Both the position numbers and the translations under genes were made by a program. Under the pieces are notes generated by a model. That model had not been told where the DNA came from, did not search any database, and worked only from the letters and a program-made list of their open reading frames with translations. From Nitrospirota bacterium (GTDB lineage: Bacteria > Nitrospirota > Thermodesulfovibrionia > Thermodesulfovibrionales > Dissulfurispiraceae), in assembly GCA_963710375.1 (NCBI GenBank), contig CAVPZX010000005.1, forward strand, positions 160,001 through 224,000: 64,000 nucleotides of DNA. The letters run 5' to 3'. Below, one piece after another: positions 10,913 through 58,091 of the stretch (position 1 is its first letter; each line of letters begins with the position of its first letter).

Positions 10913-12062
10913 TTATTTCCACTTTACGCCACGGAAAATCGCGTCCCTGTTTATGCTGTCTTTATGCGCTTCGATAACCTTCAGCATATTGTCGAGGACG
11001 GCATCGGTTAGGAAGTGAGGCTCAAGGCCCAATTCAAGCAGACCTGAATATTTGGGGTTGTAATAATGTTCTTCCTTTTCAATTCTAGGATTTTCAATAT
11101 GCTTGACTTTAATATGGTAACCCATTCGTTTGCCGGCGTCCCGCACTCTTTCGGCGAGTTGATTGACACTGAACATTTCTGTAACTTGATTAAATATCCT
11201 GAGTTCGCCGGCAGGCTGCAGGGTGCATAGCTGACAAATAGACGCACTGCATGGAATCCCTGATATTCAAATAACCCCGTGTCTGCCCGCCCTTTCCGTA
11301 CACCGTAAGCGGATGGCCGGAAACAGCCTGCACTAAAAACCGGTTTAAAACAGTCCCGAAAATCTCATCATAGTGGAAATTAGGCATTAAACGTTCATCC
11401 ATGTCAACCTCTTCAGTGGAGATACCATATACCGGTCCCTGCATGAGGTCTGTAACGCGTAACTTCCAGTTTCTGACGTAGAACCACAAAAGGTCTGTAT
11501 CCTGTATCTTAGTTGTATGGTATAGGGACCCAGCTTGCCTGGGAAACAGGAATTTATCGCGTTTGCCCTTATGATCAATTTCGAGCCAACCTTCTTCTAT
11601 GTCTATGTTGGGGGTTCCGTATTCGCCCATCGTTCCCAGTTTCACGATGTGGCACTCCGGAGCAAACTCTTTTACTGCATAAACCACATTAAGAGTTCCT
11701 GAAAGATTATTTTGCAGCGTGAAAGCCGCGGTATCCCTGCTTATCATTGAATAAGGCGCAGATGGCTGTTCGGCATAATGGATTACAGCATCAGGATGAT
11801 ATTCATTAAAGATCTTTGACAGAAATGCGTATTCGGTAATATCGCCAATACATATCTTGATTTTTTTTCCTGTAAGACCCCGCCATAAATCTGCTCTCAG
11901 CTTTAGATTGGGGCAGTGAATTAACGGTTCACAATCGAGTTCCATAGCGGCCTTTCGTTTAAAATAATTGTCTACAATAATGACCTTATGTCCCCTATTT
12001 GAGAAATACATTGCTGTGGGCCACCCGAGATAGCCATCGCCGCCTAATATCAGAACTCTCAT
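10913..12062 (-). pseudogene. sqdB: UDP-sulfoquinovose synthase-like (SqdB/SQD1) epimerase, apparent +1 frameshift near 11215
   Basis: GGDGYLGWPTA, AEQPSAPYSM, KLGTMGEYGTPN, GKGGQTRG; removing one base gives ..PA.AGELRIFNQVTEMFSVN joining ORF 10913 (NPRIEKEEHYY). Confidence 0.8.
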
Positions 12063-15152: not shown

Positions 15153-15288
15153 AAAGATGGAAGGTGAGAGCGTGAGAAGTTGTGAAGGTGAGAGTAAAAC
15201 AGAAGTTGAGAAGTTGAGAAGTTGTGAGGTTGGGATTTTGCTCATCTTCGCACCTTCGCACCTTCTCACGCTCTCAACTTCCATCTTT
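15153..15288. repeat. Octamer (GAAGTTGA family) hairpin element at the lptE 5' end
   Basis: aaagatggaaggtgagagcgtgagaag... / ...cttctcacgctctcaacttccatcttt. Confidence 0.9.
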
Positions 15289-16146
15289 TGTTTCTGCTGC
15301 ATTCTTTGTTCCGGCTGCGGGTATACCATTCAAACGAGGGCCAACCTTCCCTTTGAGACCATTTCTATCGGCACGATAGAGAATAAAACATCTGAGCCCA
15401 AACTTCAGGACAGGTGTCACGTGGCATTGGCAGAGACCTTTTCCCAACACGGTTACGAGGTAAGCTCCATTGCCCGCTACAGGCTCCAGGGTGAGATATA
15501 CCGGTTCGAGTTGATCCCTACAACCGAAGTGAACCTCGCTGCGACACAATATCAGATCGTGATGAAGGGGAGCTTTAAACTTGTTGATACGGAAAGCGGC
15601 AAATCGATTCCACTTGGGGCGGACAGCCCGTTTATCACTTATTTCAACGCTAACACCACTGACCCGCTCGAGGAAATTATGACACAAAAAGAGCTCGCGG
15701 AGGCCAGCGCTATGGCAAATCTGGCGCAGACGTTAGTCAGCCTTGTTACTTACAATACTCCCAAAAATTTTGCGAGCCTGCTGTTTAAGCCTGACGATAT
15801 AAAAAATGTGGAGGGCCTTATCGTCAAGCTGAGGGATGCAAAAGACCCGCTCTCGGAATATTTACGGGACCAATTTACTCCGGACCTTCAACGCAAAATA
15901 GATGCCTATAACCAGTTCGATTATTCGGCAAAGGAGCTCAAGACTGCACTGGCCAATGCGTTAAACAGTATAATCCAGAACAAGGACATTTTTGATGAAA
16001 AGCGTTTTGCCCATGTCATGCTCAGCGATGAGACCATGCAGCTTATCAGACAGAATGCGCAAGGCGGTAATCGGGTGAAACTCAACCGGATACTTCTTGA
16101 GGAGGCGTATCCGGACGAACTGCAAAAACCGGCAGGCAATAGGTAA
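15157..16146 (+). CDS. lptE: LptE-like LPS assembly lipoprotein with a repeat-encoded N-terminus and an extra C-terminal domain
   Basis: Lipobox-like CSGC followed by GY; ENKT.EP; position directly upstream of holA. Confidence 0.7.
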   Translation: MEGESVRSCEGESKTEVEKLRSCEVGILLIFAPSHLLTLSTSIFCFCCILCSGCGYTIQTRANLPFETISIGTIENKTSEPKLQDRCHVALAETFSQHGYEVSSIARYRLQGEIYRFELIPTTEVNLAATQYQIVMKGSFKLVDTESGKSIPLGADSPFITYFNANTTDPLEEIMTQKELAEASAMANLAQTLVSLVTYNTPKNFASLLFKPDDIKNVEGLIVKLRDAKDPLSEYLRDQFTPDLQRKIDAYNQFDYSAKELKTALANALNSIIQNKDIFDEKRFAHVMLSDETMQLIRQNAQGGNRVKLNRILLEEAYPDELQKPAGNR

Positions 16147-22419: not shown

Positions 22420-23580
<1,161 letters not shown>

Positions 23581-28418: not shown

Positions 28419-28952
28419 ATGACTAAACTAACTAAAGACCAGTACTATTTAAACATTGCTAAAACGGTTGCTGAAAAAAGCACGTGCCTGAATGTTGAAA
28501 TAGGCTGCGTTATAGAAAAGGCAGATCAAATAATTGCAACGGGATATGTGGGCGCACCTCGTAAAACTAAAGACTGCGTAGACTTAGGTTTCTGCATAAG
28601 ACGTAAGAACAACATTGAGTCCGGGCGTGGTTACGAGATGTGTCGCAGTGTACATGCAGAAATGAACGCTCTAATTAACGCAGCAAGGGCTGGGGTTTCA
28701 GTATTGGATGGGAATATGTATGTGTATGCTGGGAAGAGAACCGATAGTGAGCTCGATGCTGTCAAAGCCTATCCATGTCTATTATGCAAAAAGATGATTA
28801 TCAATGCCGGCATCTGCAGGTTTGCAGGCAACAATCCTGATAATAGCTTGACTGTCTATTCTGTATCCGATTGGGTGAAAGATTGGCAGGAACTGGACGA
28901 TCTGACGCAGGATAAAGAACTATATAAAGTTGAATATGACAAATCTAAATAA
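28419..28952 (+). CDS. dCMP deaminase family protein
   Basis: STC, TGY.GAP, HAE.NA, PCxxC. Confidence 0.9.
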   Translation: MTKLTKDQYYLNIAKTVAEKSTCLNVEIGCVIEKADQIIATGYVGAPRKTKDCVDLGFCIRRKNNIESGRGYEMCRSVHAEMNALINAARAGVSVLDGNMYVYAGKRTDSELDAVKAYPCLLCKKMIINAGICRFAGNNPDNSLTVYSVSDWVKDWQELDDLTQDKELYKVEYDKSK

Positions 28953-29062: not shown

Positions 29063-29512
29063 GATTTCCTGGAGATTGCAAAGGTGGTTGCATCCCGCTC
29101 CACCTGTTTGCGGAGACGATATGGAGCTGTAATCGCCAAGGACAATGTTATTGTGAGCACCGGCTATAATGGCGCACCGCGCGGCTCCGTAAACTGTATT
29201 GACAAGGGGACCTGCCGCAGAAAGGAACTCAATATCCCTTCGGGTAAGCTATATGAGTTGTGCGAGGCTGTGCATGCGGAGCAGAACGCAATTGTAAATG
29301 GCTCTCCTGAGAGGATGAAGGACGCAATTATTTATATTGCCGGTTTTGAAGAAGACGACACATTTGCCGAGGGCAAGCCGTGTCTCTCATGCAGAAGAAT
29401 GATACAGAACGCTATGATAAAACATGTAGTTTATCTCAAAAAGGGCGGCAATATCGTGATAGTCAAGGATGTGCGGGCGTTGGACGAAATCCCTCTGCCC
29501 GCGGTCCCCTGA
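29063..29512 (+). CDS. Second dCMP deaminase family protein, start unclear
   Basis: FLEIAK.VA.RSTC, TGYNGAP, HAEQNA, PCxxC; homology extends upstream of GTG 29084 with no canonical start. Confidence 0.8.
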   Translation, partial: DFLEIAKVVASRSTCLRRRYGAVIAKDNVIVSTGYNGAPRGSVNCIDKGTCRRKELNIPSGKLYELCEAVHAEQNAIVNGSPERMKDAIIYIAGFEEDDTFAEGKPCLSCRRMIQNAMIKHVVYLKKGGNIVIVKDVRALDEIPLPAVP

Positions 29513-37231: not shown

Positions 37232-38547
37232 TGGAGGGTTGGATGTTTAGGAGATTGGAAGGTTGGAAGCTCGGCAATTTGGCAGCTCGAAAGCTCGGTG
37301 GTTTGGCTAACCCTCTAACCCGCAAGTTCTCCAATCTTCTAATTGGTTACTGGCATAAAGGGGGGGTGGAAATTTACCGGCTTTCCGCCCCAAAAAGTCA
37401 AAGGCTTTCCGGGGGCGCCGGGCCCGCGGAAAGCAAGATCACTCTGTTTGCATCCGGAGGTCTCGACACACTTAAACCTGTCAAAGCATTCGGCAAAATA
37501 GTATTGATTGTGGGGAGAGACCTTTTTCTCCACACAAGGAAAAAGTTTCCCCCGGCATCGTTAGATGATTTGAAGAAAGCTGTAAACCTTGAAATCGGCG
37601 AGTTGTTCCCACTGAAGAGTCCCTCCTTTTTCCTCAATGTTTTTGAGAGGACCGAAGCTTACACCCTGGCTGATATATGGGCGTGGGACAGTTCTGGATA
37701 TGACAACCTGAAGCGTGTGCTCCCCTTTACCTATGTATTGCCGGAAGACATGGCCTTTATATCAGGGGAACCCGAAATCAGTGTTTTGAGCGGCTCTGCC
37801 GGCGACGCCGGTGTCTCCCATTTGCTGGCTCATTCAAAAGAAGGATTTCTCGGCATGTCGTCATTCAGAGGCCGGGTCAGCCGGAGCCACATAGAGAAGC
37901 TTCTCAAGGCGATCAGCAGTCATGCGGAAGAGGTTAAGAGGGTGAACCTTTACGGGGGAGCAGAAGCTGTTACCGCTATTAATGACCTTGGATTCCCGGT
38001 CGTGAAAAAGGAGACCAGGGGGTATCCCGCCTGCCTTGAAAATTTGAGCAGGCTCGATCTTAAACAGTTCAGTGTCCGGACAGAACCGGCTTTTATGGAA
38101 TACATTGATGTCGGCATCAGGTCCGTAATATACCTTTTTGTTGCGTATGGCATATCCCTTATTGTTGCAGGCAGGCATTATGATGCTGCAATCAGTGAAG
38201 TGAAGATAAAGACTGCAAGGCTGACTACGAGCATGTCTGCCGTAATCGTGGGGCAGAAGAAAGATTACGAGGAGGCTGCGGACGAGATGAAGGAAAAGCT
38301 GAAGGGTTGGCGTCCGCCGTTGCCTGTAATGGAGGCGTTGGCCAAAAATCTGCCTGACAAGAGCTATGTGACAAGAATGGTACTTAATGAGACCACACTG
38401 GAGTTGACACTTGCATCGAATGACCCCCTGGCGGTTGTGAAAGCCGTGGGGAGAACTGACGGAGTAAAAACAGTGAAATTGAAGGGCTCGCCTTCGAAAA
38501 ATGATAAAGGGCTTTATACCTTCTATCTTACGGTGGAACTGAAATGA
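37231..38547 (+). CDS. GspL/PilN-like assembly protein
   Basis: Cytoplasmic domain, one TM, coiled coil, LP..SYV; operon order. Confidence 0.65.
   Translation: MEGWMFRRLEGWKLGNLAARKLGGLANPLTRKFSNLLIGYWHKGGVEIYRLSAPKSQRLSGGAGPAESKITLFASGGLDTLKPVKAFGKIVLIVGRDLFLHTRKKFPPASLDDLKKAVNLEIGELFPLKSPSFFLNVFERTEAYTLADIWAWDSSGYDNLKRVLPFTYVLPEDMAFISGEPEISVLSGSAGDAGVSHLLAHSKEGFLGMSSFRGRVSRSHIEKLLKAISSHAEEVKRVNLYGGAEAVTAINDLGFPVVKKETRGYPACLENLSRLDLKQFSVRTEPAFMEYIDVGIRSVIYLFVAYGISLIVAGRHYDAAISEVKIKTARLTTSMSAVIVGQKKDYEEAADEMKEKLKGWRPPLPVMEALAKNLPDKSYVTRMVLNETTLELTLASNDPLAVVKAVGRTDGVKTVKLKGSPSKNDKGLYTFYLTVELK
37233..37341. repeat. Degenerate octamer (GGAAGCTC/GGAAGGTT) arms at the 5' end of the gspL-like gene
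   Basis: ggagggtt ggatgttt aggagatt ggaaggtt ggaagctc ggcaattt ggcagctc gaaagctc ... aaccctct..ccaatcttct. Confidence 0.6.
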
Positions 38548-38551
38548 AGAC

Positions 38552-38654
38552 AGAAGTTGAGAAGTTGCGAAGGTGAGAAGATGAGAGAAAGGATACTGCG
38601 TGAAAATGTGGGTTTGGGGTCTCAACTTCACAACTTCACAATTTCTCAACTTCT
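38552..38654. repeat. Octamer hairpin element between the gspL-like and gspM-like genes
   Basis: gaagttga gaagttgc gaaggtga gaagatga ... tcaacttc acaacttc acaatttc tcaacttc. Confidence 0.92.
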
Positions 38655-47918: not shown

Positions 47919-48014
47919 GAAGTTGAGAAATTGAGAAGATGTGAAGATGAGAAAAAGAAATGTAAGCCTGATTTGTTGTCGCGCACCTTCTCACCTTCTC
48001 AGCTTCCCATCTTC
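47919..48014. repeat. Octamer hairpin element directly upstream of the four-helix-bundle gene
   Basis: gaagttga gaaattga gaagatgt gaagatga ... gcaccttc tcaccttc tcagcttc ccatcttc. Confidence 0.92.
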
Positions 48015-48028
48015 GGATCGCCGAAGGT

Positions 48029-48433
48029 GTGATGGTGGGCAATAGTCAGAAAATAAAAAGTGTTAGGGATTTGGATGTTTATAAGATGGCTTTCAATGCG
48101 GCAATGGACATTTGGCAGATAACAAACGGTTTTCCCAAAGAAGAAAAATATTCTCTTGTAGATCAAATAAGGCGTTCTTCAAGATCTGTATGTTCAAATC
48201 TTGCAGAAGCGTGGCGAAAGAGGCGATATAAAGCCGTGTTCAAGAATAAGTTGACTGATGCTATGCAAGAGGCTTCTGAAACGCAGACATGGCTGGAGTT
48301 CAGTGTTGCTTGTAAATATGTTGATCAAAATAAATTTGATGACTTTGATCAAAAATATGAACATATATTAGCTATGTTGAATAATATGGACTTGAAAGCT
48401 GAATCCTTCTGCTTCTCAACTTCTGATAAATAA
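48029..48433 (+). CDS. Four helix bundle protein (23S rRNA IVP / TIGR02436-like)
   Basis: DL.VY, FP.EE.YSL.DQIRRSSRSV..N.AE.W, E..ET.TWL. Confidence 0.93.
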   Translation: MMVGNSQKIKSVRDLDVYKMAFNAAMDIWQITNGFPKEEKYSLVDQIRRSSRSVCSNLAEAWRKRRYKAVFKNKLTDAMQEASETQTWLEFSVACKYVDQNKFDDFDQKYEHILAMLNNMDLKAESFCFSTSDK

Positions 48434-49638
48434 TGTTTAGGGACGTATATAGAGGTAAGCAAGTATTAATCACTGGTCACACGGGATTCAAAGGCTCTTG
48501 GCTTGCCCTGTGGCTCAGAGAGTTAGGAGCGAATATAATCGGTTATTCCCTTGATCCACCTACAAACCCCAATCATTTTGATTTGCTAGCCTCTTCTCAG
48601 GTTCTCACCTTCTCATCTTCTCAACTTCCCAACTTCATCTCTATTTTCGGAGATATACGGGATGTAAAGAAGCTGAATCAGACCTTTCAGAACTATAAGC
48701 CTGATATAGTCTTCCACCTCGCTGCACAACCTCTCGTCAGGTATTCATATAAACATCCGCTCGATACATTTGAGACAAATGTGATAGGGACAATAAATGT
48801 TCTTGAAGCTTGCAGACAGACTGAATCAGTCAGGGCAGTAGTAAATATAACGAGCGACAAGTGCTATGAAAACAAAGAATGGGTATGGGGCTATCGTGAG
48901 AGTGACCCGTTTGGCGGTTACGACCCCTACAGCGCATCAAAAAGTTGCGCAGAGCTTGTGACTAACTGTTACAGGCGCTCTTTCTTTATAACTGAAACTG
49001 AGAAGTTGAGAAGGTGTGAAGGTGAGAGTAAAGCCGAAGGACTCACAACTTCTCAACTTCTCAACTTCACAACTTCAGTCCTTTTAGCCAGCGCAAGAGC
49101 GGGCAATGTCATAGGCGGCGGAGATTGGGCAGCGGACAGATTGATTCCCGACATTATGAGGGCGGTCAGCCGGAATAAGAAGGTTGTTATCAGAAATCCC
49201 AAGTCAACCCGTCCCTGGCAGCATGTGCTGGAGCCGTTGTCAGGTTATCTGGCGCTTGGGCAGAAGCTCTTGGAAGGGAAATCGGAATTTGCCGATGGGT
49301 GGAATTTTGGGCCTGATGATGAAAGCAACATATGTGTTGAAGAAGTTGCAGAAAAGATGACCAGCTTCTGGCATAAAATTGGTTACCAACGCAAACCATT
49401 TAAACATCCAAGCCTCCGGCCATCCGACCCTCATGAGGCTGGTCTGTTAAAACTTGACTGCTCGAAAGCCCATTCAAGGCTTGAGTGGAAACCTGTCTGG
49501 GATATTAAGAAAACGCTTGTAATGACCGCTCAATGGTATAAAGAGTTTTACGAACGTGATGGAATAATGAGTCAGAAGGATTTGGATGAGTATATTCTGA
49601 ATGCGAAGGAAAAAGGTTTGCGTTGGGCAGTTGATTGA
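48433..49638 (+). CDS. rfbG: CDP-glucose 4,6-dehydratase with in-frame repeat inserts
   Basis: TGHTGFKGSWL, HLAAQPLV, YSASK, RAGNVIGGGDW, RPWQHVLEP. Confidence 0.96.
   Translation: MFRDVYRGKQVLITGHTGFKGSWLALWLRELGANIIGYSLDPPTNPNHFDLLASSQVLTFSSSQLPNFISIFGDIRDVKKLNQTFQNYKPDIVFHLAAQPLVRYSYKHPLDTFETNVIGTINVLEACRQTESVRAVVNITSDKCYENKEWVWGYRESDPFGGYDPYSASKSCAELVTNCYRRSFFITETEKLRRCEGESKAEGLTTSQLLNFTTSVLLASARAGNVIGGGDWAADRLIPDIMRAVSRNKKVVIRNPKSTRPWQHVLEPLSGYLALGQKLLEGKSEFADGWNFGPDDESNICVEEVAEKMTSFWHKIGYQRKPFKHPSLRPSDPHEAGLLKLDCSKAHSRLEWKPVWDIKKTLVMTAQWYKEFYERDGIMSQKDLDEYILNAKEKGLRWAVD
48591..48636. repeat. Single octamer arm in frame in rfbG (SSQVLTFSSSQLPNF)
   Basis: tcaggttc tcaccttc tcatcttc tcaacttc ccaacttc. 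Confidence 0.9.
48991..49079. repeat. Octamer hairpin in frame in rfbG (TETEKLRRCEGE..TTSQLLNFTTS)
   Basis: actgaaactgagaagttgagaaggtgtgaaggtgagagt / actcacaacttctcaacttctcaacttcacaacttcagt. Confidence 0.95.
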
Positions 49639-49662: not shown

Positions 49663-51108
49663 ATGGAAAGAAGAGAACAACTAAAACAGGAAATATTTGA
49701 GAGAATAAGGGCATTTTATCAGCTTGTGCATGAGACATCCCACAATGCAGAGTTTGTTGCAGGCAAAAGTCGCATAAACTATGCAGGCCGGGTATTTGAT
49801 GAAGAAGAGATGATTAATCTTGTCGATAGTTCCCTTGATTTCTGGCTTACAACAGGCAAATATGCCGAAAGGTTTGAAAAAGAATTTGCAGATTTCCTTG
49901 GAGTGAAATATTGCTCTCTTGTCAATTCAGGGTCTTCAGCTAATCTCCTCGCGTTTATGGCGTTAACATCTCCGAAGCTCGGTGATAGAAGCATTCAGAG
50001 GGGCAATGAGGTCATAACAGTAGCAGCAGGTTTCCCAACCACAGTCGCTCCCATCATTCAGTATGGCGCTGTGCCGGTATTTGTTGATGTTACGCTGCCG
50101 GCATACAACATAGATTGTTCGCAGCTCGAAAATGCACTATCAGATAAAACAAAGGCTGTAATGGTCGCGCATACCCTCGGCAATCCCTTCGATATCCGGA
50201 CGGTAAAAACGTTCTGCGATAAACATAATCTCTGGCTCATCGAGGATAACTGCGACGCTCTTGGCAGTAAATACCGAAGGTGGGAAGTTGAGAAGGTGAG
50301 AAGTTGTGAACGTGAGAAGGCAGGCCCAACTTCACAACTTCACAACTTCCCACCTTCGGAGCTTTACGGCTACACCGGGACTTTCGGGCATATTGGAACG
50401 TCGAGTTTTTATCCGCCCCATCATATGACTATGGGAGAAGGCGGCGCTGTTTATACGAACGATATTCAGCTCAAAGGGATAATAGATTCTTTCCGTGACT
50501 GGGGCAGGGACTGCTGGTGTGTGTCGGGTAAAGACGATACATGCAAAAAACGCTTTAAATGGCAGCTCGGAGAACTTCCTTACGGATATGATCACAAATA
50601 TATCTATTCCCATTTCGGGTATAACTTAAAGGTTACCGACATGCAGGCGGCTATAGGCTGTGCGCAACTCGAAAAGCTGCCCTTTTTTATTGAAGCAAGA
50701 AAGAAAAACTGGAGTCTTCTGAGGGACGGGCTGCATGACCTTTCAGATAAGTTTATCCTGCCTGAGCCTACTGCGAATTCAGAGCCATCCTGGTTTGGGT
50801 TCCTGTTGACTGTGAAGGAGAGCGCGGGTTTTACGAGGGATGAGATAGTGAATTATCTTGAATCAAATAACATCCAGACACGTATGCTCTTTGCAGGAAA
50901 TATACTGAAGCATCCCTGCTTCGATGAAATGAGAAAAACCGGCCACGGTTTCCGTGTCATTAGGGACTTACCGGTAACTGACCGCATAATGCGCGACAGT
51001 TTTTGGGTTGGGGTCTATCCGGGGATGAAAGAAGAGGCGATCGAATATGTCATGCAAAAGATAAAAGAGTATGCAAGACATGAACAATCGATTCCCGGTT
51101 TAGGGTAA
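49663..51108 (+). CDS. rfbH: CDP-4-keto-6-deoxyglucose 3-dehydrase (RfbH/DdhC) with an in-frame repeat insert
   Basis: NSGSSANL, EDNCDALG, SFYPPHH.T.GEGG (His in place of the PLP Lys), RDCWC..G.D.TC. Confidence 0.95.
   Translation: MERREQLKQEIFERIRAFYQLVHETSHNAEFVAGKSRINYAGRVFDEEEMINLVDSSLDFWLTTGKYAERFEKEFADFLGVKYCSLVNSGSSANLLAFMALTSPKLGDRSIQRGNEVITVAAGFPTTVAPIIQYGAVPVFVDVTLPAYNIDCSQLENALSDKTKAVMVAHTLGNPFDIRTVKTFCDKHNLWLIEDNCDALGSKYRRWEVEKVRSCEREKAGPTSQLHNFPPSELYGYTGTFGHIGTSSFYPPHHMTMGEGGAVYTNDIQLKGIIDSFRDWGRDCWCVSGKDDTCKKRFKWQLGELPYGYDHKYIYSHFGYNLKVTDMQAAIGCAQLEKLPFFIEARKKNWSLLRDGLHDLSDKFILPEPTANSEPSWFGFLLTVKESAGFTRDEIVNYLESNNIQTRMLFAGNILKHPCFDEMRKTGHGFRVIRDLPVTDRIMRDSFWVGVYPGMKEEAIEYVMQKIKEYARHEQSIPGLG
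50274..50359. repeat. Octamer hairpin in frame in rfbH
   Basis: ccgaaggtgggaagttg... / ...caacttcccaccttcgg; outer 17 bp perfectly complementary. Confidence 0.95.
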
Positions 51109-53199
51109 TATTTCATTCAGCAATTGCCGGGTTTTTTGGTCATCCGGCTTTATCTTTAACCTTGTCATCAATTGAATGCGCGCATTTTCTATAATATCCG
51201 GTCTCAGGCGCAGGGCAGTTTCGAATTCATTTTTGGCCTTGTCAAGTCTGTCGCTGTCGTAATAAACAAGGCCAAGATTAAAATGTGCTTCTGCGTAATC
51301 GGGCGCAAGTTTAATGGCAATCAGATACTGCTCAATAGATTTGTCAGGCATGTTGATGGCATGATAGGCAATGCCGAGATTATTATGTGCCTCAGCATAA
51401 TCAGGCTTGAGTTTAATGGCAATGATATATTGCTCAATAGCATTGTCAAGCATGTTGCGACTTTTATAAAAATTACCAAGTCTGGCATGTGCATTTGCGT
51501 AACGGGGGAATCTTTTAACTGTATCTTCCCACATTTTTTTGCTGTCTCCATATAGATTGTTCTGCAAATGAGCTGCGACTGACAGAATGCTTATAATAAG
51601 GGCGAGCGTCACTAGTATCACATTGCCGGCTTTCTGTGAACGAATTTTTTCTTTCAGCAGAAATACCCCCGTAACTGTGCAAATGATTACCCCGACCGAG
51701 GGCAGATACATTCGATACGTTTCAATAAGCCTCGGCGTAGGTATAATGCTCGATTCAACTGAAAGGGTGATAAAGAACCACAATATACCGAAACCCATCA
51801 AACGAAAAGCAGGACTAAGGGCAGAGGACTGAGAGGCGAGGACTGAGGACTGAGGACTGAGAGACGAGGACTGAGAGGCGAGGACTGAGGACTGAGGACT
51901 GAGAGACGAGGACTGAGAGGCGAGGACTGAGTTTTCGTCTTCGCGCTTTGCCCTCAGTCCTTTGCCCTTAGTCCTCAGTCCTGGACCCTCTTCCTTTGGC
52001 CCTTTCCACTCAGTCCTCAGTCCTTCGCCCTCAGTCCTCAGTCCTCGCCTCTCTTTTTTCTGCACTAAATAAATCCCCAGTCCAAATAGCGCTGAGAGAA
52101 ACACAAATGAAACGGATACCTGCGGTTGAAAAAAAGACTTAAACACAGGGTACTCATAATTGAGTTCCAGGTTTGCCGGGAAAAACAGCATTCGCAGGTA
52201 AGTGACAATGACCCTGAACTGGGTGAAAAAATACTCTCCCCGCGAGTAGTCCCAGGTGAATCCGGCCATATATGAGCCCGGGTCAATAAGGCTGGGATTA
52301 ATCAGTTGTGTGCCGCGTACTTCGGTCACTGTCGGCATGCTCATAATAGTCAGAGGTATGATGCAAAGTGAAAGCAATAATGGAGCAAGAACGAGCATCC
52401 TCTTCTTAATGCCGCCATTAAAAAAACAAAACTCGTACAACGTTATCACAAAGGGCAGAGTAAACGCATTCTCCTTTGTTTTCATTGCCAGGACCGCTGA
52501 AAGAAGGGATATGGCGTACATAGTCCGGCGCCGGGCTTTATGATGGTCAGGAGCCTCCAATCTGAACTTAATATATGCTGTGAGGGAAAGGAGATAGAAA
52601 AAAGCGGCGAGAGAGGCATAACGTTGCATGACATACGTAACCGCCGCTGTCTGCAGCGGGTGGACGGCAAACAGAGCGGCGGAGAAGAAGGCAATCACTG
52701 CCGGATTGCCTGAACTTGAGAAATTGAGAACTTGTGAAGGTGTGCCCTTTGCCCTATGCCCTATGCCTTTCATGTAAGGTGTTCTGAATGTCAATAGAAC
52801 AAGCAAATAAACCAGGATTGTATTGGCGATATGAATGGCAATATTGACAATATGGTAGCCGGTCACCGATAAACCGTTTATACGGTAGTTGAGCGCAAAG
52901 GTGAGATGCGAGATGTAGCGGGATATGAAAAAACGGTAATTCTCAAACCCTTGAGCTGTTGAGGGGTGAAGGAAATAATTAAGGTCCTTGATAATAGGCT
53001 CGTTAACAATATGCATCTCTTCATCCCACTGAAATGGGACATTCAAGGCATTGGAGTAAATGATCAGAATAAGCAGAGACAGACAAGCGATATGCACAAA
53101 GGAGTTATATGTCAATGACAGCGGACTGAACGATGCATGTGCAGGGGGAAGGTCATTGTGACGGATCAGCTTATTTGTTTTCTTACCCTTGTTTTTCAT
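51100..53199 (-). CDS. TMTC-like GT-C + TPR protein, paralog 2
   Basis: Same motifs as 26326-28050; TPRs. Confidence 0.75.
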   Translation of the reverse strand: MKNKGKKTNKLIRHNDLPPAHASFSPLSLTYNSFVHIACLSLLILIIYSNALNVPFQWDEEMHIVNEPIIKDLNYFLHPSTAQGFENYRFFISRYISHLTFALNYRINGLSVTGYHIVNIAIHIANTILVYLLVLLTFRTPYMKGIGHRAKGTPSQVLNFSSSGNPAVIAFFSAALFAVHPLQTAAVTYVMQRYASLAAFFYLLSLTAYIKFRLEAPDHHKARRRTMYAISLLSAVLAMKTKENAFTLPFVITLYEFCFFNGGIKKRMLVLAPLLLSLCIIPLTIMSMPTVTEVRGTQLINPSLIDPGSYMAGFTWDYSRGEYFFTQFRVIVTYLRMLFFPANLELNYEYPVFKSFFQPQVSVSFVFLSALFGLGIYLVQKKERRGLRTEGEGLRTEWKGPKEEGPGLRTKGKGLRAKREDENSVLASQSSSLSPQSSVLASQSSSLSPQSSVLASQSSALSPAFRLMGFGILWFFITLSVESSIIPTPRLIETYRMYLPSVGVIICTVTGVFLLKEKIRSQKAGNVILVTLALIISILSVAAHLQNNLYGDSKKMWEDTVKRFPRYANAHARLGNFYKSRNMLDNAIEQYIIAIKLKPDYAEAHNNLGIAYHAINMPDKSIEQYLIAIKLAPDYAEAHFNLGLVYYDSDRLDKAKNEFETALRLRPDIIENARIQLMTRLKIKPDDQKTRQLLNEILP
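51811..52053. repeat. Heptamer (GGACTGA) hairpin in frame in paralog 2
   Basis: (ggactga)n ... (tcagtcc)n; encodes GLRTE.. and SPQSSVL.. Confidence 0.95.
52712..52767. repeat. Composite octamer + heptamer insert in frame in paralog 2
   Basis: gaacttga gaaattga gaacttgt gaaggtgt followed by gcccttt gccctat gccctat gcc. Confidence 0.85.
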
Positions 53200-54285
53200 A
53201 AAAGATCCCTGACCGTTTCAGCGTGAGATTGCATTCAATAACTGACGGGCTATCTGGTCATCAGGCTTTATCTTTAATCTCGCTATCAACTCTCTGCGCG
53301 CATTTTCCAGTTGTCCCATATTATAGTAGAGGACTCCGAGATTAAAATGAGCTGTTTCATTATCCGGTTGGAGGCGTATGACAGTTTGTAATTCATTCAC
53401 GGCCTTGTCAGGCATGTTGAGGGACTGATAAAGAATAGCGAGATTATTGTGCGCTTCCACATAGTTGGGCTTCTCCTGTATTGCGGCCAGATAGTGTTCA
53501 GTTGCCTTGCCAGACATGCCCTGATCTTTATAGACATTGGCTAGATTATAATGCGCCTCAGGGTAATCAGGCTTCAGATTAATGGCAGTCTGAAACTCTT
53601 TTATAGCCTTGTCAGGCATGTTGAGGGCCTGATAAACAGCTCCCAGATTATTATACGCTTCTATAAAATCGGGTTTTAGATTAATGGCAGTCAGAAACTC
53701 TTTTATAGCCTTGTCAGGCATTTTGAGGGCCTGATCATAGAGGACGCCAAGATTGTAATGCGCCTTCCAGTGCCCAGGGGCAAGACTTATTGCAGTCAGA
53801 TATTCCTTTAAAGCAGCATCGGGCATACCGAGGTCTTGATAGCTGTTGCCGAGACCGAGATGCGCTTCAGTGGAATCAGGATTAATTTTCAAGGCAAGCT
53901 GAAACTGTTCCGCAGCCTTGTCCGACATGCGATGGTGTCGGTAGGCCAACCCAAGATTATAATGCACTCTTTCTTTTGCAGGGAATTTTAACGCGTCTTC
54001 TTTCCATAACTTGACTTCGTCTCTCCACATATCATTGCGCATATATGTAGCAACTGACAGTACGCCTGCAGCAAGTGCAAGAATGGTTACTATCACCCTA
54101 CCGGCTTTTGGGGAACGCAGATTTTCTTTCAGCAGAAATGCACCGGTAACAACGCAAACAAATATCCCCATTGAAGGCAGATACACGCGGTGTTCAAAAA
54201 TCACATCGGCGATGGGTATGATGCTCGACTCCACTGAGAGAGTGATGAAAAACCACAATATCCCGAAACCCATCAACTTAAAGGC

Positions 54286-54556
54286 AGGACTGAGGGCAGA
54301 GGACTGAGAGGCGAGGACTGAGGACTGAGGACTGAGTGCCAAGGACTGAGAGACGAGGGCAGAGGACTGAGGACTGAGAGACAAGGACTGAGAGGCGAGG
54401 ACTGAGGACTGAGTGTCAAGGACTGAGGACTGAGCAGAGAGGACTGAGTTTTGGTCTTCGATCTTTGCACTCAATCCTCTGCCCTCAGTCCTCAGTCCTG
54501 GATCCTCTTTCCTTTGGCCCTTTCCACTCAGTCCTCAGTCCTCTGTCCTCAGTCCT
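54286..54556. repeat. Heptamer (GGACTGA) hairpin in paralog 3
   Basis: (ggactga)n ... (tcagtcc)n. Confidence 0.95.
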
Positions 54557-55036
54557 TGTTTTTTTCTCGCTCCACAGCACTAAATAAATGCCCAGCCCGA
54601 AAAGCGCGGCAAGAAACATAAACGAAAAGATCACCTGGGGGTAAAAGAAAGATCTATAAATAGGATAGTCATAGTCGACATTCTGTCCTGCGGGGAAAAA
54701 CAGCAGCCGCATATATCTCACAATTACTGAGAACTCCGTCATCAGGTATTGCCATGGCGTCGTCCTTGTCTGCACTGTTATCTTGCTCGCATCCGACAAT
54801 ACTTTCCCCAACGGCTGGCTCACATTCAGCAAGCTCAAAGGAATGATGACCACTGTTGCCAGCAGCGGCAAGGCCCATAGAGCCCTCCTGAGCAGATTGC
54901 CTCTGCCGAAGAACACCAGTTCGTACAACACAACAATAAACGGCAGTGTAAAGGCTATCTCCTTTGTCATCATCGCAAGCACAGCCGAAACAATAGAAAT
55001 CCCATAATAAAAATATGGCATGTATTTTCGTTTTTC

Positions 55037-55310
55037 CCGGCTACCGGCCACCGGCCCCTGGCCACTGTCTTTTGCTTCTTGCCCTCCGCCCTCAGTCCTC
55101 AGTCCTTGGTCCTCTGCCCTCAGTCCTCGCCTCTCAGTCCTCAGTCCTTGGTCCTCTGCCCTCAGTCCTCTGCTCTCAGTCCTCAGTCCTTGGTCCTCCG
55201 CCCTCAGTCCTCGCCTCTCAGTCCTCAGTCCTTGGTCCTCTGCCCTCAGTCCTCGCCTCTCAGTCCTCAGTCCTCTGCCCTCAGTCCTTGTTTTATTACC
55301 CTCAGTCCTT
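55037..55310. repeat. Heptamer array with a 42-bp higher-order unit, in frame in paralog 3
   Basis: ctcagtcctcagtccttggtcctctgccctcagtcctcgcct repeated about 4 times (GLRTERRGLRAEDQ), next to ccggcta ccggcca ccggccc ctggcca. Confidence 0.95.
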
Positions 55311-55454
55311 GACTTTATATATGTCACTAATGAAAGGAGATAAAAAAATGAAGCGAGGGACGCAAGCCTCTGCACTATATAAGTGACCGCCTGAGTTTGG
55401 ATAGGATGCACCGCAAACAAGACAGCAGAGAAGAAGGCGATCAGCCCGGAATCG

Positions 55455-55520
55455 CTGAGTACTAAAGACTGAGGACTTAGGACTGAGGGCATAGGACTGA
55501 GGACTGAGGACTGAGGACTC
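55455..55520. repeat. Heptamer arm in frame in paralog 3
   Basis: Encodes SPQSSVLSPMPSVLSPQSLVLS. Confidence 0.9.
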
Positions 55521-55841
55521 ATGGCCGGTGTTCTGAATGTAAATAGCACAAATAAATAAACCAGCATGGAGTTAGCAATATGAATTGCAAGATTGACTAT
55601 ATGGTAGCCGGTCACATTTGAACCACCCAAGCTGTAGTTCAGGGAAAATGTCAGATACCCGATGAATCGTCTAGAAAAATGTTCATACCCTGTGGAACTG
55701 AACAGAAAATTTCCGATATGACGCACTATACTGTTATCAATTATGTTGAATTCATCGTCAAATACAAACGGCGCATGAAAAGTATTAGAATAACAAATCA
55801 GGCATAATAGAGCTATAATGCCGGCATGTAAGAGCTGGGAA

Positions 55842-58091
55842 TTATGATTTTGATTTGGAAATTTCATTCAGCAACTGTCGGACATTTTGGTCGTTAGGTT
55901 TTATCCTTAATATCGTTGTCAATTCCCTGCGTGCCTTTTCTTTCTGTCCCCTCTCATAATAGAGTTCTCCAAGATTGGAATGCGCCTCTATATAATCGGG
56001 CTTCAGTTTAATGGCAATCAGATAATATTCTATGGCCTTGTCGGGCATTTTCTGGTCTTCATAGATTACGCCAAGATTATTATACGCCTCTGCGCAGTCA
56101 GGCTTTAGTTTAACAGCAATCAGATACTCTTTTAAAGCCCTTCCACGCATGCTGCGGGACTGATAAAACACGCCACCCAGATCAAGATGGGCCTCCACAT
56201 AATCAGGCCTCAGTTCTACGGCAGTCATAAACTCTTTTATAGCTTTCTCGGGCATTTTACGATCTTTATATATATTGCCAAGGTTATAATGTGCCTCAGG
56301 TAAGTCCGGATTAAGCTTGGAAGCAATCATAAACTGCTCAATCGCCTTGTCAGGCATATTACGGTCTCGGTAGATAACCCCGAGGTTATTGTATTCCTCT
56401 GCAGAATCAGGTTTCAGCCCAATGGCAATCCGGTACTGCTCTATGGCTTCATCGAACTTTTTTTGAGACTGATAGAGGCGACCAAGATTATAATGCGCCC
56501 TTTCCTTGGCAGGTGATTTTGCCACGACGTCTTTCCACAGTCTTATACTGTCTCCCCACACTTCGTTCCGCAGATACGTAGCGACCGACAAAACTCCTAT
56601 AGCAAGGGCCAGCATCAAGATTATTACCCTGCCGTACCTGGGCGAACGCACCTTTTCTATTAACAAAAAGGCCCCTGTAACTGTACAAATAATCATTCCT
56701 ATTGAAGGCAGATAAGCACGGTGCTCGTAAATTACATCAGTGATAGGTATTATGCTTGACTCGACCGAAAGAGTGATAAAAAACCACAATATACCAAAAC
56801 CCATCAAACGAAAAGCAGGACTGAGAGGCGAGGACTGAGAGGCGAGGACTGAGGACTGAGCAGTTAGGACTGAGTTTTGGTCTTCGCGCTTTGCACTCAG
56901 TCCTTTGACCTCAGTCCTCAGTCCTGGACCCTCTTCCTTTGGCCCTTTCCACTCAGTCCTCAGTCCTCTGTCCTCAGTCCTTGCTTTATTACCCTCAGTC
57001 CTCAGTCCTTGGTCCTTCGTCTTCAGCACTAAATAAATGCCCAGCCCGAAAAGCGTCACCAGAAACAGAAGCGACAGCATCACCTGGGGATAGAAGAAAG
57101 ATCTATACACCGGATAGTCATAATCGAGGTTCTGCCCTGCAGGGAAAAACAGCAGCCGCACATACGTCACGATCACAGTGAACTCTGTTATCAGATACTG
57201 CCACCGCGTCATGCTTGTTCCCGCCGCAGTCACCTGATTCACATCCGACAACACCTTCCCCAACTGTTGGCCCACATTCAGCATGCTCAGTGGAATGATG
57301 ACCACTGTTGCCAGCAGCGGTAAGGCCCATAGCGTCCTCTTAATCAGATTGCCTCTGCCGAAAAACACCAACTCGTAAATCACAATGATAAACGGCAGCG
57401 TAAAGGCTATCTCCTTTGTCTTCATCGCCAGCACCGCAGAGATAATAGAGATGCTGTAGAAGAAGAGATACCGGAAGTTGCCCTTTGCCCCGCCTGAGGC
57501 GGGCCCTCTGCCCTCTGCTATTAGCCTGAACCGAACATAAAAGTACAACGAGGCAACATAAAACAAAGCTGCCAAAGACGCAAGCCGCTGCACTATGTAT
57601 GTCACTGCCTCGGTTTGGATAGGATGCACCACAAATAACGCGGCAGAAAAAAAGGCAATCAGATTAGAATTTCTGAGGACCGAGGACTGAGGACTGAGAG
57701 GCAAGGACTGAGGACTGAGAGACGAGGACTGAGGGTTCATTAACGGAGTCCTGAATGTAAGCACCACCAATCCATAAACCAGAAGCGCACAGGCCAGATG
57801 TATGGCAAGATTTACTACATGGTAGCCGGTCACATCAAGGCCGCCCAAGCGGTAGTTCAGGGCGAATGTCAGAAACCCTATAAAACGGCGGGGATTATTT
57901 TCATATCCTTTGGAGCTGAAGATAAAATTGCCGATATCATGGACTACCCTGTTATCCCTTATAGAGTATTCGTCGTCAAATATAAACGGCACATGGAAAC
58001 TGTTGGAATAGACGATTATTCCTGCCAAAATTATCAGGAAGGGATAAAAAAAATGATGGGCCGTTGCTGAATTCTTTGCCTTCCGAAACAT
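55842..58091 (-). CDS. TMTC-like GT-C + TPR protein, paralog 4
   Basis: FDD, YH..N..IH, HP.QTEAV.Y..QR, EHR.YLP, multiple TPRs. Confidence 0.78.
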   Translation of the reverse strand: MFRKAKNSATAHHFFYPFLIILAGIIVYSNSFHVPFIFDDEYSIRDNRVVHDIGNFIFSSKGYENNPRRFIGFLTFALNYRLGGLDVTGYHVVNLAIHLACALLVYGLVVLTFRTPLMNPQSSSLSPQSLPLSPQSSVLRNSNLIAFFSAALFVVHPIQTEAVTYIVQRLASLAALFYVASLYFYVRFRLIAEGRGPASGGAKGNFRYLFFYSISIISAVLAMKTKEIAFTLPFIIVIYELVFFGRGNLIKRTLWALPLLATVVIIPLSMLNVGQQLGKVLSDVNQVTAAGTSMTRWQYLITEFTVIVTYVRLLFFPAGQNLDYDYPVYRSFFYPQVMLSLLFLVTLFGLGIYLVLKTKDQGLRTEGNKARTEDRGLRTEWKGPKEEGPGLRTEVKGLSAKREDQNSVLTAQSSVLASQSSPLSPAFRLMGFGILWFFITLSVESSIIPITDVIYEHRAYLPSIGMIICTVTGAFLLIEKVRSPRYGRVIILMLALAIGVLSVATYLRNEVWGDSIRLWKDVVAKSPAKERAHYNLGRLYQSQKKFDEAIEQYRIAIGLKPDSAEEYNNLGVIYRDRNMPDKAIEQFMIASKLNPDLPEAHYNLGNIYKDRKMPEKAIKEFMTAVELRPDYVEAHLDLGGVFYQSRSMRGRALKEYLIAVKLKPDCAEAYNNLGVIYEDQKMPDKAIEYYLIAIKLKPDYIEAHSNLGELYYERGQKEKARRELTTILRIKPNDQNVRQLLNEISKSKS
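56817..57030. repeat. Heptamer (GGACTGA) hairpin in frame in paralog 4
   Basis: Same site and loop as 51811-52053. Confidence 0.93.
57673..57734. repeat. Heptamer arm in frame in paralog 4
   Basis: Encodes PQSSSLSPQSLPLSPQSSVL. Confidence 0.9.

Follow-up and report, generated by a model that had tools for sequence, protein, structure and literature searches.

Results

Repeat arrays in the loops of a predicted membrane glycosyltransferase

The window, by which we mean the whole 64,000-nucleotide stretch analyzed here (G000:C5:160001-224000, from a 3.19 Mb genome in nine contigs), carries on its minus strand a gene at 53218..55867 whose product has 882 residues in another assembly and which is divided over two ORFs in the window. 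This host gene is one of three adjoining paralogs, the other two, also on the minus strand, encoding 749 residues (55842..58091) and 699 residues (51100..53199). Repeat arrays lie in up to three loops of these proteins, designated A, B, and C. In the host gene, on the minus strand throughout, loop A has an insert in the stop-free orientation of the GGACTGA repeat family (55455..55519, SPQSSVL), and loop B has a 32-slot array of the same family (55085..55308), made of about 4.5 copies of a 42-nt block that codes for (GLRTERRGLRAEDQ)n. At the end of loop B, a second, short heptamer array of the TGGCCGG type (55037..55065) codes for SGQGPVAGSR. The loop is charge-rich, with 25 K/R and 18 D/E among 99 residues. 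Loop C contains a purine arm in the GGACTGA sense, with altered in-frame slots (54466..54556), and a pyrimidine arm in the TCAGTCC sense (54286..54448) with which it is predicted to form a hairpin (z = -6.6). In the 749-residue paralog, arrays lie at 57673-57734 in loop A and at 56817-57009 in loop C, and there is none in loop B. In the 699-residue paralog, loop A carries an insert of mixed 7/8-mers (52712-52767) and loop C a hairpin of GGACTGA units (51811-52046). Within window positions 55083-55519, the pyrimidine arm of loop A and the purine arm of loop B of the host gene can pair across an interval of approximately 140 nt that codes for transmembrane sequence, with the pyrimidine arm first, which is the rare order; contigs of two runs fold back at this place, which is probably an assembly effect.

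A structural model of the 882-residue form, based on a 108-sequence alignment (pLDDT 82.6, pTM 0.81), has a confident core. Its membrane part matches Pmt1-Pmt2 (6p2r_B; Z 21.5, rmsd 4.5, 362 aligned), Pmt4 (Z 20.4), AglB (Z 19.8), and ArnT (Z 18.2), and Pfam matches identify the tail as TPR. On the basis of the model, the host is predicted to be a membrane glycosyltransferase of the GT-C fold with a TPR tail, a layout for which we take "TMTC-like" to be a fitting label. No GT-C or TMTC match to Pfam was found among 14 homologs, which leaves the membrane domain unnamed by Pfam, and a Foldseek search gave TPR matches only. Some homologs carry the source name "protein O-mannosyl-transferase," which is a name only, the activity being putative. 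Model confidence is low (pLDDT <50) at residues 226–265 and 457–509, inside the inserts, as may be anticipated for stretches that lack alignment depth; residues 187–222 are modeled as a helix extension. The family is greatly expanded in the genus, where it forms tandem clusters with 13 to 24 match rows per genome and several rows per gene (G000, G001, G003, G005, and G009).

The three loops are hypervariable across the family. Among 24 homologs, drawn from this genome and its relatives, and among 130 database proteins, they range from about 10 to more than 100 residues, with peptides that derive from differing repeat words or are palindrome-like. Loop B, readable in 115 of the 130 database proteins, has 11 to 116 residues (median 21). 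Loops A to C also accept non-tandem palindrome-like inserts, sometimes nested with heptamer arms (L031, L033, L034, L038, P0043, and P0067); peptides of this kind include DSGQAGMT...HSGLSGI, SLRAPDGGAAIS...LLHFVRND, and PPNLPLDKG...PPLKIRGG.

The apparent break in the host gene is caused by an extra T at 54508 (strand not applicable), which results in a frameshift and an in-frame TGA at 54485; with the one-base shift of the window, this stop falls inside the loop C array. The extra T is missing from the contigs of all four runs that cover the site, which come from two studies and possibly include the source sample. A 90% identity cluster of the host protein has seven members, namely the 460-residue piece of the window and six that read through (three of 840 residues, one each of 854 and 882, and a 667-residue partial), and both sides of the indel are identical to the 882-residue protein. 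Because the runs lack the extra T and the other cluster members read through, the split is an artifact of the assembly, or else no more than a private allele. The same evidence (4/4 runs and 6/6 other cluster members) rules out the TGA at 54485 as a counter-example to stop avoidance or as a sign of RNA-level removal. Three substitutions, at 55672, 56012, and 56292, also distinguish the window from the public runs. Single-base indels of this assembly should be doubted in general. A UDP-sulfoquinovose synthase-like gene at 10913-12062 (minus strand) appears frameshifted near codon 285, its match covering residues 1–281 of 384 with the rest in another frame, and this may be another assembly indel. 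Two adjoining dCMP-deaminase-like genes (28419-28952 and 29084-29512) have zinc motifs of their own and are tandem paralogs rather than a split gene.

Codon phase of the loop B array

The GGACTGA array lies on the minus strand within the ORF 55867..54485. The first-pass annotation had read a pure (GGACTGA)n array as GLRTED-stop, as direct translation confirms, and had claimed that each unit that would place TGA in frame is altered at that point. Across 55308..55085, TGA is present in none of the 11 in-frame slots versus 16 of the 21 out-of-frame slots, and the in-frame slots hold CAA, CGA, AGA, GGA, or AAT in its place. The 42-nt block proved to be as described (units 9–14), except that TGA is not kept throughout out of frame, as one of the four out-of-frame units, GGGCAGA, also lacks it. 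Tandem Repeats Finder (TRF) reports this array with a period of 42, 4.5 copies, and 95% agreement.

Placing the variants at random on a 29-unit lattice of the array gives P = 5e-5, and a de-duplicated test on the first six units of the 42-nt block gives P = 0.067. These statistics are weaker than they look because the units are non-independent copies of one block. In addition, any ORF lacks in-frame stops by definition, which makes the phase count partly circular. The non-circular support for a translated array consists of the homology that flanks the insert on both sides, the TGA words that are kept out of frame, and the non-coding and antisense controls described below. Complete tryptic cleavage of the inserts would give AEDQGLR, TEGGGQEAK, DSGQGPVAGSR, and a long loop C peptide beginning with IEDQNSVL; GLRAEDQGLR, suggested at the outset, presupposes a missed cleavage.

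Length steps and unit spacing

The 882-, 854-, and 840-residue forms of the host protein differ solely by two or three 14-residue blocks in the GGACTGA array, and a paralog shows a step of 7 residues in loop A. Some of the shorter forms (840 and 854 residues) may be assembler collapses. Steps of 14 residues were the only ones among the seven cluster members, with no single-unit, frame-changing variant, in a sample where frame-shifted alleles are under-represented because only frame-keeping variants would enter a full-length cluster and contigs break inside the array.

Expansion had been proposed to be confined to blocks of 21/42 or 24 nt. Steps of 42 and 21 nt are indeed seen, but the rule is too narrow because spacers in the GTGAATA family also avoid in-frame TGA: inserts of the GTGAA type dodge stops through 7/8/11-nt spacing. 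Sense arrays of this family are spaced, for example, 7, 8, 7, 11, 7, 8, 7, which places successive TGA words by turns in phase 1 and phase 2, as read in three cases. The family is poor in variants, and a strict 7-nt lattice occurs in 0 sense versus 3 antisense arrays of 95 in this genome, and in 0 versus 11 in relatives.

Octamer arrays and inserts in other genes

An octamer family shows a related pattern. Direct translation bears out the reading of pure (GAAGTTGA)n as EVEKLRS-stop. The claim that coding octamers dodge this stop holds for rfbG (EKLRRC) and rfbH (RRW...EKVRSC), in which TGT or TGG occupies the in-frame slots; the third copy named, in "lptE," is of unproven coding status. The latter consists of octamer arrays reading EVEKLRSC (15163..15269, plus strand) at the start of the ORF 15157..16146, for which both the earlier label lptE and the start are unconfirmed. 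The product has no family match in NCBIfam or Pfam and the array falls within the first 26 codons. An octamer hairpin just past the stop at 38547, reaching the start region of gspM (38552..38654, plus strand), had been offered as an intergenic control. The hairpin does retain a TGA, at 38574, within the EVEKLR register, but a different frame runs through it without a stop (KLRSCEGEKMR), which makes this copy uninformative. Between rfbF and rfbG, on the plus strand, the region 47919..48433 comprises an intergenic octamer hairpin (47919-48014) and a four-helix-bundle gene (TIGR02436, 48029-48433); this intergenic copy reads EVEKLRRCE, as in coding copies. Nearly all octamer arms of the genome (30/36) are four units long, which suggests a measured arm length.

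In rfbH, an octamer hairpin in frame (50276..50357, plus strand) makes a loop of 33 residues versus 4 in the solved structure 3bcx; the corresponding insert loop has 44, 25, 26, or 5 residues in congeners versus 34 here. The gene rfbG has two octamer inserts (48593..49077, plus strand), a pyrimidine arm (48593-48636) and a hairpin (48999-49077), which account for about 10 and 21 extra residues versus 1wvg. An octamer pyrimidine arm in tgt (22998..23033, minus strand) adds 10 residues relative to the best solved homolog. Values of dN/dS are 0.07–0.08 for rfbH (three of four pairs computed) and 0.05–0.12 for tgt (four of four pairs), indicate purifying selection, and apply to these two hosts rather than to the glycosyltransferase gene with the GGACTGA array. 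Further genes with arrays encode NAD synthetase, HypF, a MiaB/RimO-type radical SAM enzyme, and FliP (14/14 scanned match Pfam). By these alignments, insertion in frame into unrelated, apparently intact genes is a recurrent property of the arrays.

Phase counts and controls

In sense arrays of the GGACTGA family in this genome, the stop is kept in 0 of 17 in-frame versus 36 of 40 out-of-frame units. When seven word families are pooled, TGA is found in 0 of 23 in-frame versus 47 of 56 out-of-frame units. At 81 loci of relatives, the corresponding counts are 0/13 and 34/39. TAG repeats account for 11 of these 13 arrays and mostly represent one inherited insert; the stop filter thus appears to act on TAG repeats as well. 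Runs of three stop-bearing units in succession occur in 0 of 23 sense versus 7 of 34 antisense runs.

A GTDB-wide scan gave at least 122 loci, from many phyla among the 80 whose source was listed, and 170 arrays were read among the matches listed. Of these arrays, 18 have a candidate host ORF, and three lie in sense orientation, two of them securely coding (L069 and L149), with TGA in 0 of 3 in-frame versus 6 of 6 out-of-frame units among the matches listed. The third, L091, was excluded on account of its position slightly upstream of the TGT match (residue 163 versus 183); if it is counted, the totals become 0/4 and 9/9. Six antisense rows (L054, L063, L108, L134, L142, and L169) have no Pfam support around the array. 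Coding copies in the sense orientation are under-sampled here because the search pattern favors pure arrays. Among the matches listed, 152 arrays lie outside long ORFs and have lost TGA in 123 of 920 units, and their open frames show no excess over shuffled expectation (16/134 versus 18.1 and 1/43 versus 2.4). The non-coding GGACTGA clusters on the contig of the window have stops in all three frames in seven of seven cases.

Genes hold far fewer arrays than their share of the genome would imply. By our own gene calls, the genome is about 87% coding, yet only 28 of 309 arrays of heptamers and 21 of 77 of octamers lie inside genes, a few of these gene-internal rows being chance low-complexity matches.

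The supposition that the variants are special to coding copies finds no support. Among GGACTGA units, 21 of 57 in sense and 27 of 83 (33%) in antisense are stop-free, and the same words occur in both. Tabulated by codon phase, coding copies show the contrast that filtering would leave; the opposite expectation, that TGA-destroying variants are as frequent in intergenic copies, is half borne out by the octamers, in which 25 of 58 (43%) non-coding units lack TGA. Since stop-free words are equally common where no stop is at stake, selection likely sorts placements more than it creates variants. Non-coding GGACTGA arrays of other phyla are purer (13% altered), so that some in-frame changes there may postdate insertion.

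Antisense arms are also phase-biased (15/28, 16/28, and 25/27 intact), which shows that a phase can become fixed through block copying and common descent, with no selection on stops. Phase units are not independent, as paralogs have common inserts, and the joint probability computed for 13 sense arrays (log10 P = -7.7) was set aside because paralogs share ancestry. The case rests instead on repetition over sites, word families, and phyla, in which we count, by our own estimate, perhaps about a dozen apparently independent cases.

Genome-wide arrays, hairpins, and four-helix-bundle genes

Repeat rows found by TRF peak at a period of 7 (403 rows), followed by 217 at 6 and 145 at 8, with only 2 at 5. 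The 386 arrays include 129 inverted pairs, in which the purine arm comes first in 122, and strong folding is predicted for the inverted arms (z = -6.6 and -6.7). Such stable hairpins leave room for a role at the RNA level. We also considered the pyrimidine arm as a templated copy of its partner. There was no support from octamers (11 pairs, 0.837 versus 0.849 shuffled) or GGCAATA (21 pairs, 0.839 versus 0.836), and a slight signal from GTGAATA (38 pairs, 0.884 versus 0.865). The GGACTGA doublet occurs in 4 of 41 related genomes, with 45 matches here versus 1, 1, and 4; being nearly private to this genome, it points to fast turnover.

Arrays are associated with genes for a four-helix-bundle protein, whose family was originally described from intervening sequences of rRNA. 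Five of the six such genes have 6–9-mer arrays on both sides within 250 bp, versus 64 of 2971 for all genes and 17 of 234 for genes of the same region, and the sixth has GGACTGA clusters on its flanks. At G000:C5:267796-270506 and 276761-278465, a four-helix-bundle gene is surrounded by long GGACTGA clusters that are non-coding, have A-rich spacers, and form 25–60-nt higher-order repeats. Beyond this genome, a general association found no support: a narrow profile built from six sequences matched 1 of the 122 GTDB loci listed, 42 of which are shorter than 1 kb; with this profile, none of the 170 arrays among the matches listed lies within 300 bp of a four-helix-bundle match. The GxxExxY family was not found in this genome.

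Discussion

These tandem-word hairpin repeats, which are common between the genes of this genome, also sit in frame in variable loops of intact genes. We consider it probable, on the strength of the sequence comparisons, that they are translated there and that they persist only where no stop-bearing unit falls in frame. That the inserts are translated and filtered by selection had been proposed at the outset. The intact host gene, the hypervariable loops, the low dN/dS of two other hosts, the recurrence of the phase pattern in congeners, TAG repeats, and other phyla, and the lack of an open-frame excess in non-coding arrays all agree with the proposal; what finds no support is the idea that the variants are special to coding copies. 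An array of some four to five units, in which stop-bearing and stop-free words are already mixed, would land or grow in a permissive loop. Copies that are frameshifted or carry a stop in frame would then be lost through selection on the host protein, and the survivors would have the stop-free orientation, variant words on the in-frame slot, or 8/11-nt spacers that skip this slot. Slippage or unequal exchange could subsequently amplify whole 21- or 42-nt blocks and copy the phase pattern with them. The loop peptide would be a tolerated passenger, probably disordered, with no needed function.

If the peptides were instead selected for function, block number might tune a charged, disordered loop of the glycosyltransferase, a type of role proposed for Borg tandem repeats in passages of PMC9879509. 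The 14-residue steps among near-identical proteins and the charge of loop B are consistent with such tuning. We nonetheless regard it as improbable, as close homologs have unrelated peptides of other repeat families, or nearly none, at the same loop, the peptide is dictated by DNA word and orientation, and tgt, NAD synthetase, HypF, and FliP also take inserts. Stop avoidance and frame keeping would be needless if the insert were spliced out of the RNA or bypassed by the ribosome and hence absent from the protein. Both hold, and many inserts, including the loop B array and that of tgt, are single arms within a loop, while the lone apparent frameshift (54508) is an assembly indel. Removal at the RNA level is thus very improbable in our judgment, even though the inverted arms fold strongly, are ordered purine-first in nearly all pairs, and flank four-helix-bundle genes. 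We find even less reason to believe in a phase-variation switch, in which gain or loss of a 7-nt unit would toggle the glycosyltransferase gene. A unit length not divisible by three, the envelope and sugar genes among the hosts, and the frameshift in the window itself would fit a switch, but that frameshift concerns one base rather than seven and is missing from all four runs, all six other cluster members read through, and the array is degenerate, its perfect period being 42 and not 7.

The pattern could also arise without any selection on stops, as a by-product of the way in which ORFs are defined and blocks are copied. ORFs lack in-frame stops by definition, the de-duplicated P for the loop B array is 0.067, and antisense arms share the phase bias. 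Such a by-product would hardly bring about in-frame homology on both sides in genes with low dN/dS, recurrence in separate word families, sites, and phyla, and the strong depletion of arrays from genes, and we deem it exceedingly improbable. Finally, the abundance of TGA words would by itself allow for TGA being recoded as an amino acid in this organism. This reading, to which we assign next to no probability, was rejected, as TGA terminates 497 of the 1279 long called genes and TAG repeats are filtered likewise; moreover, in-frame TGA is avoided rather than used.

Regarding origin, a link between the arrival of arrays and four-helix-bundle cassettes would be a lead. It is conceivable, though we rather doubt it, that the hairpins are arms of a phylum-crossing mobile cassette system, sometimes with a four-helix-bundle gene, that actively seeds genes, filtering and 21/42-nt amplification together then acting as a generator of length-tunable loops.

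The arrays are a member of the bacterial heptamer repeats and work like Rickettsia palindromic elements (RPEs) without being RPEs. As described in parts of PMC4679880, which also summarizes the work of Mrazek et al. (2007) on long simple sequence repeats in bacteria, TAACTGA heptanucleotide repeats occur in Beggiatoaceae, Cyanobacteria, and Bacteroidetes. Their forward orientation has stops in all frames and the reverse is readable; within ORFs only the reverse is reported there, the forward repeat at most overlapping a gene end by up to 18 nt. Xanthomonas GGGAATC arrays prefer four units, form many inverted pairs, and are 7% to 11% intragenic according to sections of PMC4692102. The arrays studied here are likewise 7-nt tandem words in hundreds of short arrays per genome, mostly intergenic and patchy over phyla, and share with GGGAATC the convergent inverted pairs of about four units per arm; all four family traits considered, namely the unit-length peak, intergenic bias, patchiness, and inverted pairs, were found. 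Unlike TAACTGA repeats, forward arrays of up to 32 units lie here deep inside intact genes, with variant words or spacers on the in-frame slot, and, unlike in known heptamer repeats, several word families (6–8 nt) share one genome.

RPEs are palindromic DNA inserted in frame in housekeeping genes (Ogata 2000, 2002, as cited within PMC10969869). The present arrays are similar in that they, too, are palindromic repeat DNA in frame in housekeeping genes that are unrelated to one another, and in that the protein fold is predicted to tolerate them. Whereas RPEs form families of about 150 bp with a conserved peptide, the arrays have low complexity, variable length, and a natural reading that contains stops; lengths, words, and peptides vary between sites and congeners, and no fixed family of the RPE type was seen. 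In Borg ORF tandem repeats, all coding units are divisible by three, as stated in portions of PMC9879509. Fast-changing coding repeats, frame-keeping steps, and frequent location in membrane proteins are common to both systems, and predicted disordered segments may be, but Borg units are near-perfect and locus-unique, and the units here are 7 or 8 nt long, degenerate, and common genome-wide and across phyla, the frame being kept by the 21/42-nt superunit only. A literature search of main texts, in a collection with few subscription journals, brought up no paper that deals with a phase-locked loss of stops from heptamer arrays.

The surprise is modest, as the proposed filter is ordinary purifying selection. 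In practical terms, the arrays break assemblies and gene calls, as the split gene of the window, an assembly indel, illustrates. Stop words that are kept out of frame and lost in frame would provide a translation signature, readable from sequence only, that can be counted across genomes. The pattern connects the unexplained heptamer repeats of bacteria with the RPE-like creation of protein loops and shows a probable route by which a gene-killing repeat can still colonize genes.
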